From: a virus
Lineage: Duplodnaviria > Heunggongvirae > Uroviricota > Caudoviricetes
Reading direction: 5' to 3' (one strand)
Length of the DNA stretch: 16,911 bases
IMG/VR virus record: IMGVR_UViG_2872164251_000008
The translations under genes were made by a program, and so were the position numbers. The notes under the pieces are model-generated. The model did no database searches, was not told the DNA's origin, and worked only from the letters and a program-made list of their open reading frames with translations. Positions 9,671 through 11,360 of the stretch are shown in pieces (positions within the stretch are counted from its first letter, which is position 1; each line of letters begins with the position of its first letter).

Positions 9671-9825
9671 AAAAAAGTCCTGGGGTTAAGTAAGGAACTC
9701 CAGGACGCGGCAAACACTCAACCGTTTTTCATAAGGAAATCAGTAATCGCACCGATCGTTTTCCCGCCTGGTAATGAATATTGGCGAGCACATTAACAGG
9801 CGGGAAAGTGGCCCCAGCGTCCTGG
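9671..9825 (-). promoter_or_regulatory. capsid operon 5' leader with terminator/antiterminator-like alternative pairing and a 17-bp-arm inverted repeat
   Basis: On the mRNA, GCGUCCUGG (9708-9700) can pair either with an upstream CCAGGACGC (9825-9817, 9 bp) or with the downstream CCAGGAC (9683-9677, 7 bp). The downstream arm contains the capsid Shine-Dalgarno and is followed by U6 directly before the AUG. A separate inverted repeat TTTCCCGCCTGGTAATG / CATTAACAGGCGGGAAA spans 9760-9807. Confidence 0.4.
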
Positions 9826-9861
9826 CACCACGGGCGAGAATAATCATGATTCAGTTCGGGT

Positions 9862-9930
9862 AAAATATGCCGATCCGCTCAGTGAACAACGTGGAACAAC
9901 CACGAACAAATAATTTACAAAAAATAACAA
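9862..9930 (-). promoter_or_regulatory. candidate capsid-operon promoter (-35 TTGTTC, 16-bp spacer, -10 TATTTT on minus strand) overlapping five phased TTGTTC-type repeats (9884, 9894, 9904, plus degenerate 9915, 9925)
   Basis: Direct reading. The promoter hexamers are weak matches and are not verified. Confidence 0.35.
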
Positions 9931-9950
9931 AAAGCCGGATTGCTCCGGCT
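9920..9950 (-). terminator. rho-independent terminator (AGCCGGA-GCAA-UCCGGCU then UUUUUGUUAUUUUUU)
   Basis: Perfect 7-bp GC-rich stem, 4-nt loop, U-rich tail on the minus strand. Confidence 0.65.
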
Positions 9951-9969
9951 GTATGTGCTGTATGGGTGC

Positions 9970-10194
9970 TCAGTCTCTGATCCCTTTCAGAAATTCTATC
10001 AATGCATCTGTCTGTTCAGGATTTACTGCCAGCATTTCACCGGATAGCGCGCAACGAACAAAACCATGATGATCCTTTTCAATCAGCGCCCCCGTTTCCA
10101 GAAATGCGCGGTAATCAGTGATATTCATCGTCTCCATGTTGTCAGCATGGTATTTATCACGCTGTTTAAGTATCTCATCAAATTTCATCGGCAT
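9970..10194 (-). CDS. hypothetical protein (74 aa from MPMKFDEILK…), bracketed by two identical terminators
   Basis: ORF track 9970..10272. The internal ATG at 10194 has a GAGGA Shine-Dalgarno at 7 nt, whereas the first ATG abuts the terminator U-tract. Confidence 0.5.
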   Translation of the reverse strand: MPMKFDEILKQRDKYHADNMETMNITDYRAFLETGALIEKDHHGFVRCALSGEMLAVNPEQTDALIEFLKGIRD

Positions 10195-10285
10195 TGCGTT
10201 TTCCTCTGTTGTGTCTGTTTGTTTCAGATAGTAACTATGCCGGACCGTGACGAAAAGCCAGTAGTGCTCCATACCGTTTCAAATG

Positions 10286-10313
10286 ACGCAAAAAAAGCCG
10301 GATTGCTCCGGCT
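10286..10313 (-). terminator. rho-independent terminator, hairpin identical to the one at 9933-9950, followed by UUUUUUU
   Basis: Same 18-nt hairpin AGCCGGAGCAATCCGGCT followed by a T7 run on the minus strand. Confidence 0.65.
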
Positions 10314-10326
10314 TCGTGGTGTGGTT

Positions 10327-10497
10327 CTGATATTCCTACTCTGCTAATTTGCTCAGCCCCATGTCTGCGTAAGTGCGATTTACTGCATTTCTCAGGTCTG
10401 CGTAGTTCTCCGTTGGCGGCTCCGGTGTGCCCTTGCTGCTCTGTTTTACCAGCGGGTCGCCCACCAGCCGCCCGTAAGCTGCAATTTGTGCTGTCAT
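10327..10497 (-). CDS. hypothetical small protein (56 aa), not in the supplied ORF track
   Basis: Open frame found by hand: MTAQIAAYGRLVGDPLVKQSSKGTPEPPTENYADLRNAVNRTYADMGLSKLAE. ATG at 10495-10497 preceded by GAGGTGG. Fills the gap between the 101-aa ORF and the terminator. Confidence 0.35.
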
Positions 10498-11129: not shown

Positions 11130-11360
11130 TCCCCTTGTCTACCTTAGTGGCCCTCATGCCAGTAATGGCGCTGCTTTCAGCGGGGTAGAGTGCTTTTATC
11201 CACTATCTACCCCGTGTCTACCTCCCTGTCTGATTCAGGTAAAATCAGGTAGAGAGGGTAGATAGTGGGTAGACAGTAAAAAAAGGCTACCTACCTAACT
11301 TAATGCACTGAATTAAATGTATTTTTCTTTACTCAGGTAGATAGGGTAGACAGCAATTAC
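11130..11360. repeat. candidate replication origin: cluster of GGTAGA iterons in both orientations with interspersed AT-rich stretches, immediately 3' of the primase-helicase gene
   Basis: GGTAGA at about 11184, 11248, 11257, 11268, 11336, 11345. Inverted TCTACC at about 11138, 11206, 11217, 11287-11296. AT-rich runs at 11274-11285 and 11300-11330. Confidence 0.55.

Follow-up and report, generated by a model that had tools for sequence, protein, structure and literature searches.

Hendrix and Juhala's concept of the moron describes an extra gene, with a promoter and a terminator of its own, that lies between two genes of a phage operon. Lambdoid phages also carry short conserved sequences at their module boundaries, and these serve as joints for the exchange of modules by homologous recombination. 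Phage-inducible chromosomal islands that form capsids (cf-PICIs) are recently described satellites, which make capsids themselves and borrow tails only; the packaging genes have been dissected, whereas the genes from replication to capsid have not. The DNA considered here, IMG/VR record IMGVR_UViG_2872164251_000008 (16,911 nucleotides (nt), the whole of which we call the window), is a cf-PICI of Escherichia coli/Shigella, read on the minus strand. Between its early genes and its capsid operon lies a small gene, here called geneX, which encodes 74 amino acids (aa) and has a copy of the same terminator-like hairpin on either side (T1 upstream, T2 downstream). The explanation that we favour, with moderate confidence, is that geneX forms a unit of its own between duplicated junction terminators of the island, and that this unit is lost and gained at the hairpin. 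The features on which the argument rests are the following.

10290-10315, minus strand: T1, predicted intrinsic terminator at the end of the early (replication/ssb-perC) operon; stem GAAGCCGGA/TCCGGCTTT, GCAA loop, seven T
10195-10289, minus strand: leader of geneX; 5′ half variable, with almost no variation between E. coli alleles in the part that extends from about 10256 to the Shine-Dalgarno sequence
10228-10256, minus strand: P_X, putative weak sigma-70 promoter; -35 TTTTCG (10256-10251), 17-nt spacer, -10 TACTAT (10233-10228)
9970-10194, minus strand: geneX, 74-aa acidic protein of PHROG 1957; Shine-Dalgarno GAGG (10206-10203), 8 nt before the ATG
9919-9950, minus strand: T2, predicted intrinsic terminator after geneX and second copy of the junction hairpin; its U-tract enters a conserved box of the late leader
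9929-10313, minus strand: presence/absence unit of 363 bp, comprising one hairpin copy, the leader and geneX, and bounded by a 22-nt direct repeat

An earlier reading of the window, made from the sequence alone, had claimed that an identical 18-nt hairpin with a U-tract occurs twice on the minus strand around a single small gene with its own Shine-Dalgarno sequence. Both parts of this description hold. The 18-mer AGCCGGAGCAATCCGGCT is present in exactly two copies, at 10313-10296 and 9950-9933, both on the minus strand, and no further copy was found in the window with up to three mismatches allowed; shuffled controls gave a mean of 0.01 matches, and two matches in 0 of 200 shuffles. With the first U's included, the full identical stretch is the 22-nt sequence AGCCGGAGCAATCCGGCTTTTT, whose copies are 363 nt apart. 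The stem of T1 has 9 bp (5 G-C) when the flanking A-U pairs are counted and that of T2 has 7 bp (5 G-C); both carry 4-nt GNRA loops, followed by a run of seven T in T1 and by TTTTTGTTATTTTTT in T2. The form, with a G+C-rich stem, a GNRA loop and a U-tract, is canonical for the intrinsic terminators that the sequence-only reading had named: both hairpins were classed as intrinsic-terminator-like by a terminator scan, and they fold at -14 to -15 kcal/mol, with a z score of about -4 relative to shuffles. Each begins 19-20 nt past a co-oriented stop codon, T1 after the perC fusion described below (stop at 10336) and T2 after geneX (9970), and in loci L014 and L015 the hairpin likewise sits just past the stop of ssb. 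We predict from these properties that T1 and T2 act as terminators. A third terminator-like hairpin, GAAGGGGCTAAAAAGCCCCTTT, lies at 8482-8503 on the minus strand between the capsid and protease genes, where it could attenuate expression beyond the capsid gene or make the capsid mRNA more stable.

The identity of the two terminators, correct for the window itself, turns out to be a lineage-specific trait. Related islands mostly have a GAAA loop upstream and a GCAA loop downstream: this combination was seen at 12 of 15 two-hairpin loci in IMG/VR, the state of the window (GCAA/GCAA) at two and GAAA/GAAA at one. T1 is kept in L001-L004, mostly with the GAAA loop. In L005, whose geneX homologue is 74% identical, T2 has a 6-bp stem and a different loop (TCAT), and the T-run is kept. 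Perfect identity of T1 and T2 is thus a minority state, probably the result of recombination or conversion between the copies.

Whether the cassette varies among related islands had been put forward as a check, and the answer is a precise presence/absence polymorphism with breakpoints at the hairpins. Most E. coli megablast matches to the region end exactly at 10313 and 9929. At the empty sites of L006-L008 there is a single hairpin in a hybrid junction, with the 5′ flank of T1 and the 3′ flank of T2. The 3′ end of perC and the late leader, that is, the leader of the capsid operon, are about 98-100% identical between the window and L006 and L008, and the same capsid protein accession, WP_001137341.1, is found in L001, with geneX, and in L006, without it. 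The HK97-type late leader is present in 420 E. coli genomes and the geneX cassette in 539; the geneX-T2-leader junction is contiguous in 216 of the roughly 360-420 leader-bearing genomes, and about half of the E. coli HK97-type islands have no geneX, with breakpoints at the hairpin. In other cassette-bearing genomes, for example O157:H7 EC4115, the cassette stands before different late modules. No compensating promoter changes were seen in the leaders of empty islands, and from these comparisons geneX appears dispensable for the capsid module. Among IMG/VR loci L028-L147, geneX is present in 15 of the 46 islands whose early module ends in perC and in 0 of the 46 that end in ssb, hyp92, hyp101 or the primase gene. 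This association may reflect linkage or functional pairing with perC; in other genera geneX is present without perC.

The hairpin itself is more widespread than the cassette. It occurs in 1,227 of 5,426 complete E. coli genomes (23%), as against 539 with the cassette, at 1-7 places in each. Membership of a generic host repeat family had been named as a possible objection, and we reject a repeat of the REP/BIME type (repetitive extragenic palindromic sequences and bacterial interspersed mosaic elements): such a family would be expected in tens to hundreds of scattered copies, and because the hairpin has only 1-7 places per genome it is not REP-like; the contexts that were checked are PICI junctions. 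In islands that have only the hairpin, a single copy separates the late module from the last early gene, which it follows directly. Three such contexts were found, with unrelated late modules: in L006-L008 the hairpin follows perC and precedes the same HK97 capsid leader; in strain Nissle it stands between ssb and a lambda E/D-type module; and in a third case it stands between ssb and a module with a ClpP-capsid fusion. In IMG/VR, 96 of 120 hairpin loci are early/late junctions, in many combinations, with early modules ending in ssb, perC, hyp92, hyp101 or primase joined to various late starts. The presence of the hairpin at junctions of such varied modules, and as a single copy without geneX, points to an early/late junction terminator of the E. 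coli/Shigella PICI group rather than a property of geneX. Its general form can be written AGCCGGAG(N)AATCCGGCU followed by U's. The remaining 24 IMG/VR loci, within L033-L143, fall into about nine unrelated AT-rich viral contig families, in which the 22-nt hairpin and U-tract follow unrelated genes; evidently a simple GNRA-loop terminator arises repeatedly and independently.

Beyond the junction hairpin, lambda E/D-type PICIs have a G+C-rich stretch, …ACGGGGCGGGAGGCGCGGAAAAAAGCGC…, with a second strong terminator after it, AAAAAGCCCGATAAGG…CTTATCGGGCTTTT (L014 4023-4090; L005 about 715-770). By its likeness to lambda cosN, the G+C-rich stretch may be a lambda-like cos site. It is deleted in EC4115.

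Conservation of geneX as a coding sequence was the other check that had been proposed, and the 74-aa frame passes it. Among E. coli alleles and the 74%-identical homologue of L005, the ratio of nonsynonymous to synonymous substitution rates (dN/dS) is 0.09-0.28, with an excess of changes at third positions. The protein matches phrog_1957 (E 2e-40), a family whose function is not annotated. An exhaustive HMMER and profile search gave about 70 homologue clusters (71 by profile search), all of them labelled 'hypothetical' and free of Pfam domains, from Escherichia, Klebsiella, Citrobacter, Enterobacter, Salmonella, Xenorhabdus, Arsenophonus and others. These data argue that geneX is a genuine small gene with purifying selection on the 74-aa frame. 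Two other frames were considered and rejected as genes: a 100-aa open reading frame (ORF) starting at 10272, since a 1-nt indel in EC4115 (L003) puts a stop codon in the extension, and an antisense 93-aa ORF (10066-10347, plus strand), against which the pattern of third-position substitutions favours the 74-aa frame. A 37-aa ORF called 'trigger factor' by RefSeq/PGAP spans T1 (L001 9253-9366, corresponding to about 10235-10348 in the window). Elsewhere it is labelled 'hypothetical protein', in other strains it is frameshifted, and it is almost certainly a spurious call.

The geneX protein has an isoelectric point of 5.0 and a net charge of -5. An AlphaFold (AF2) model built from a 19-sequence alignment consists of four helices and a beta-hairpin, with a pLDDT (predicted local distance difference test) of 86 and a pTM (predicted template-modelling score) of 0.74. 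Structure prediction and remote-homology searching, which the sequence-only reading had recommended, gave this confident model and no match in the PDB or among known folds: the protein has no significant match in Pfam, NCBIfam, PADLOC or PDB sequences, none among PADLOC models at E values up to 1, none in a fold search with the model, and none by tblastn against 50,697 phage records, and Pfam scans of individual homologues returned scattered noise only. A search of the family profile against the PDB gave a marginal match to residues 83-121 of Nt.BspD6I (sequence E 0.003, domain E 0.62); these residues are presumably part of the enzyme's DNA-recognition domain. The G+C content of geneX is 0.43 overall and 0.43 at third positions, compared with 0.50-0.56 and 0.51-0.65 in its neighbours, in a sample of only 75 codons. 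The papers on cf-PICIs, Rpp, EcCIMP1 and HE-PICI make no mention of the gene or its flanking terminators.

Homologues that are 32-47% identical hold the same slot, after the replication gene (rep) and the origin of replication (ori) and before the capsid leader, in cf-PICIs of at least 10 genera. The slot is kept in Gilliamella, Kosakonia, two Serratia species, Pectobacterium, Enterobacter, Phytobacter, Kluyvera, Leclercia and Xenorhabdus, and in a multi-species Enterobacteriaceae island; two further homologues precede the same late-leader hairpin. Of 16 independent contexts, 14 have geneX immediately upstream of the late leader. In the islands of other genera the ori iterons end 25-40 nt from the ATG of the gene, and in Xenorhabdus a hyp92 homologue lies directly upstream of it. 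We take the ancestral slot of geneX to be at the end of the series rep, ori, hyp92 and geneX, with the leader of the late operon as its next neighbour. The variable part lies downstream of the geneX homologue and comprises 0-1.8 kb, mostly of ORFs on the opposite strand, which are unannotated in other genera. Directly after the gene, L019, L021 and L023 have an unrelated intrinsic terminator of hairpin and T-run, and in L148 an invariant box of the late leader starts 3 nt past the geneX stop. Its synteny marks geneX as an old, positionally conserved gene and not as recent cargo. In the Kosakonia cowanii cf-PICI (L017 4373-5861), a PADLOC candidate defence pair, PDC-M32A/B, lies between the geneX homologue and the capsid leader (E 3e-139 and 4e-49). 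He et al., writing on cf-PICIs, noted this variable region in front of the packaging operon and expected it to hold immune systems (preprint 10.1101/2025.02.11.637232).

Within the leader of geneX, E. coli alleles show eight differences in the first ~55 nt, compared with one from the -35 hexamer to the Shine-Dalgarno sequence; the 45 nt upstream of the hexamer are about as variable as synonymous sites (dS ~0.3). L005 keeps the geometry of P_X (TTTACG, 17 nt, TACTGT), though its spacer has diverged. This is the pattern of conservation expected of a promoter, and P_X may be a weak one. With T1 upstream and selective constraint on the ORF, geneX must be transcribed either from its own promoter or by read-through.

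The region that follows T2 is the leader of the capsid operon, which is conserved across genera and contains the following elements.

9671-9932, minus strand: conserved capsid-operon leader, conserved across genera (L017-L025, L148)
9921-9909, minus strand: invariant box TTTGTAAATTATT
9909-9884, minus strand: three TTGTTC repeats with 10-bp spacing
9864-9837, minus strand: P_late, putative promoter; TTTACC, 16 nt, TATTCT
9831-9808, minus strand: 5′ hairpin, in which 4 of 9 pairs have compensatory changes among three variants
9807-9760, minus strand: 17-bp inverted repeat
9706-9677, minus strand: hairpin and six-T run that hold the likely Shine-Dalgarno sequence (AGGA) of the capsid gene

A pair of the form TTTACn, 16 nt, TATnnT is conserved in most of the aligned genera. 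The late leader looks like a regulated, structured leader and appears to have a promoter of its own.

On the reading that we favour, T1 would end the early operon after ssb/perC, and T2 would end the geneX transcript and keep upstream transcription out of the late leader. Since T1 lies upstream, geneX would most likely be transcribed from its own weak promoter in the conserved part of the leader, and in that sense would be moron-like. The promoter-like signals of P_X and of the late leader lead us to favour three separate units (early, geneX and late) that T1 and T2 insulate from one another. As the two copies of the hairpin amount to a direct repeat of 22 nt, recombination or slippage there may add or remove the 363-bp unit; such events would explain both the half of E. 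coli HK97-type islands that have no unit and the occurrence of the unit before unrelated late modules. That the capsid module seems to do without geneX speaks against an essential role as late activator or assembly factor. A small, acidic, satellite-specific product fits a protein-binding modulator of a helper, host or island protein, and we suppose that it binds such a partner around the early-to-late transition rather than acting as an enzyme or a classical DNA-binding regulator.

Several observations weigh against this reading. T1 is degraded in L005; there is no terminator after the gene in L148 and Gilliamella, so T2 is not universal; and the identical hairpin sequence has arisen independently in the nine or so unrelated viral contig families. 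The identity of T1 and T2 could likewise owe something to convergence, although homology is favoured by the flanks that they share and by the hybrid structure of the empty sites. P_X matches the consensus at 7 of 12 positions, which is below the threshold of the promoter scan, and that scan calls no promoter in the geneX leader. No search gives a function for the protein. Two descriptions offered by the sequence-only reading need to be qualified in this light. Insulation of the cassette from its neighbours is plausible in the window, where T1 and T2 are both in place, and does not extend to islands such as L148, where the late leader begins so close to the geneX stop. The term moron-like is apt as regards the gene's own terminator, variable presence, lower G+C content and possible promoter; it fits less well with a hairpin that appears to be the junction terminator of the island and with a gene that is syntenic in at least 10 genera.

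Other explanations of the layout have to be weighed against an independent geneX unit. The sequence-only reading had suggested helper interference or defence, and we see a modest chance that geneX is such an accessory gene, autonomous and expressed while the island is resident, with a role of this kind or in superinfection exclusion. Its presence/absence polymorphism, low G+C content and possible promoter would suit such a gene, as would the absence of the family from phage records and a position in or beside the variable region before the packaging operon, with PDC-M32A/B directly downstream of the Kosakonia homologue. No PADLOC model matches it, however, and a conserved position with about 40% identity across at least 10 genera is unlike rapidly swapped defence cargo. 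A rather small chance attaches to a scheme in which geneX has no promoter of its own and merely lies between checkpoints: T1, T2 and the hairpin at 8503-8482 would be stops in one long rightward transcription unit, silencing the late genes in the uninduced state, and would be read through after induction by means of the island's AlpA or a helper antiterminator. The genes from alpA to terL are co-directional with three terminator-like hairpins in series on their strand, no strong sigma-70 promoter was detected in either leader, and the island's alpA belongs to the Phage_AlpA family. In Pseudomonas aeruginosa, AlpA acts as a processive antiterminator and overcomes intrinsic terminators of heterologous origin (PMC7969949), and alpA is needed for induction and transfer of EcCIEDL933 (preprint 10.1101/2022.09.08.507074). 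However, the late leader has a promoter-like pair whose spacing is conserved in most aligned genera, the geneX leader shows the conservation of hexamer and spacing typical of a promoter, and capsid formation by cf-PICIs is reported even in the absence of a helper (preprint 10.1101/2025.02.11.637232). The AlpA of enterobacterial PICIs is linked to antitermination through family membership alone.

Two further proposals tie geneX to the switch from early to late expression. In the first, to which we give only a slim chance, it is a satellite-specific early-to-late factor without a phage counterpart, and the hairpin doubles as the joint for swapping late modules and for gain and loss of geneX; the protein might modulate the output of tail-less capsids made without a helper, or counteract a protein of the helper or host. 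This idea draws on the gene's place beside the late leader in at least 10 genera, its absence from the 50,697 phage records and the presence of the hairpin at every early/late combination examined. Slimmer still is the prospect that geneX directly controls the adjacent late operon, through the TTTGTAAATTATT/TTGTTC region or the 5′ hairpin of the leader RNA, much as lambda Q lies upstream of pR'. The position of the gene in 14 of 16 contexts, the 3-nt interval to the conserved box in L148, the faint profile similarity to Nt.BspD6I and the compensatory changes in the leader hairpin all speak for direct control; yet about half of the E. coli HK97-type islands have no geneX while their leader stays near-identical, their capsid protein is the same and their promoters show no compensating changes. 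The geneX product is acidic besides, and several genera have unrelated cargo of up to 1.8 kb between gene and leader. Activation of the late genes by PerC was set aside as an account of the layout, as perC is truncated here and absent from many islands with the same junction. Finally, the notion that the locus is an artefact, with an ORF that arose by chance between copies of some generic intergenic repeat of the host, has practically no chance of being right. Hairpins of identical sequence do occur in unrelated viral contigs, and PGAP annotation at this spot is inconsistent, down to the tiny 'trigger factor' ORF across T1; purifying selection on the frame, the 71 homologue clusters, the quality of the AF2 model and the low hairpin count in 23% of genomes effectively refute it.

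By Pfam searches, the island around the unit has the gene set of a cf-PICI: int, alpA (Phage_AlpA family PF05930, E 5e-18) and pri/rep, along with capsid, protease, portal, connectors, HNH, terS and terL genes of its own, and no tail genes; EcCIEDL933 is a cf-PICI with a matching gene set (preprint 10.1101/2022.09.08.507074). On the minus strand the early genes run from the integrase through alpA, small genes, DUF4222, a D5-type primase, the ori iterons and two hypothetical genes to a 53-aa ORF; T1, the 74-aa gene, T2 and the 260-nt leader follow, and then the capsid operon, in the order HK97-type capsid, protease, portal, head completion protein, connector, HNH, terS and terL. Every gene of the island from alpA through terL is co-directional. 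The cassette region is 99.8% identical to that of a chromosomal island of E. coli STEC1587 (L001), which is, in its RefSeq annotation, syntenic with the window; in a Shigella flexneri island, geneX and the flanking genes are 98.5-100% identical at the protein level. The immediate upstream neighbour of the unit is the following.

10336-10497, minus strand: in-frame ssb'-'perC deletion fusion of 53 aa, the last ORF of the early operon here

The fusion joins SSB residues 1-25 to the last 28 residues of PerC and arose by a deletion of about 500 bp relative to islands of the L008/L002 type; the island of the window is therefore without intact ssb and perC. Elsewhere the 53-aa ORF is annotated as 'PerC family regulator'. 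Iterons of the form GGGTAGAyAG and their complements, in direct and inverted orientation, occupy 11131-11356, in a 280-nt gap after the primase gene, and this region is likely to be the island's replication origin. At the far end an IS1 element (insA/insB) lies right after terL, and the flanking chromosomal gene is phoQ (window 1-1461, plus strand; 2642-3339, minus strand). The STEC1587 island is inserted in tqsA instead; thus closely related islands appear at two chromosomal sites. An Rfam scan of the whole window matched no family.

These results bear on the part of cf-PICIs between replication and capsid genes. A terminator on each side of a gene is ordinary architecture, and geneX is a well-defined target for knock-out in a topical system; its natural presence and absence in near-identical islands supplies ready-made isogenic comparisons. 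For annotation, the length of the gene should be corrected from 100 aa to 74 aa, and the spurious 'trigger factor' micro-ORF that spans T1 removed. More generally, one short terminator-like hairpin forms the common joint of early and late modules in E. coli PICIs.

Compared with described systems, the locus shares features with several. As in phage morons, a small ORF has a factor-independent terminator behind it, stands between conserved modules in some elements and is missing there in others, has a lower G+C content and has a candidate promoter. Unlike phage morons, geneX resides in a satellite, the upstream terminator belongs to the early operon of the island, the slot is kept in many genera and the promoter is putative. 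The location and the element family are those of the cf-PICI variable region (10.1101/2025.02.11.637232; for EcCIEDL933, 10.1101/2022.09.08.507074), but geneX is a conserved gene at its edge and not a variable insert. EcCIEDL933 itself carries the cassette; the set of mutants made in it covers the packaging genes from 1786 onward, with geneX outside it (10.1101/2022.09.08.507074). Lambda Q with tR' and P. aeruginosa AlpA (PMC7969949, PMC9371919) also involve intrinsic terminators ahead of late or lysis genes, and an AlpA-family protein is encoded here too; in the island, however, no AlpA-binding element or loading promoter was identified, and both leaders look self-promoted. Integron gene cassettes offer a formal likeness, with hairpin-ORF-hairpin as the filled state and a single hairpin as the empty one. 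We reject an integron reading, as the joint is an 18-nt GNRA-loop stem with a U-tract, not an attC site of 57-141 nt with R and L boxes, and there is no IntI-type integrase. The boundary sequences of lambdoid phages likewise form a conserved joint of about 22-24 nt between unrelated early and late modules in many combinations. The difference is that the PICI joint is itself a predicted terminator hairpin, and that its duplication makes a small indel unit.

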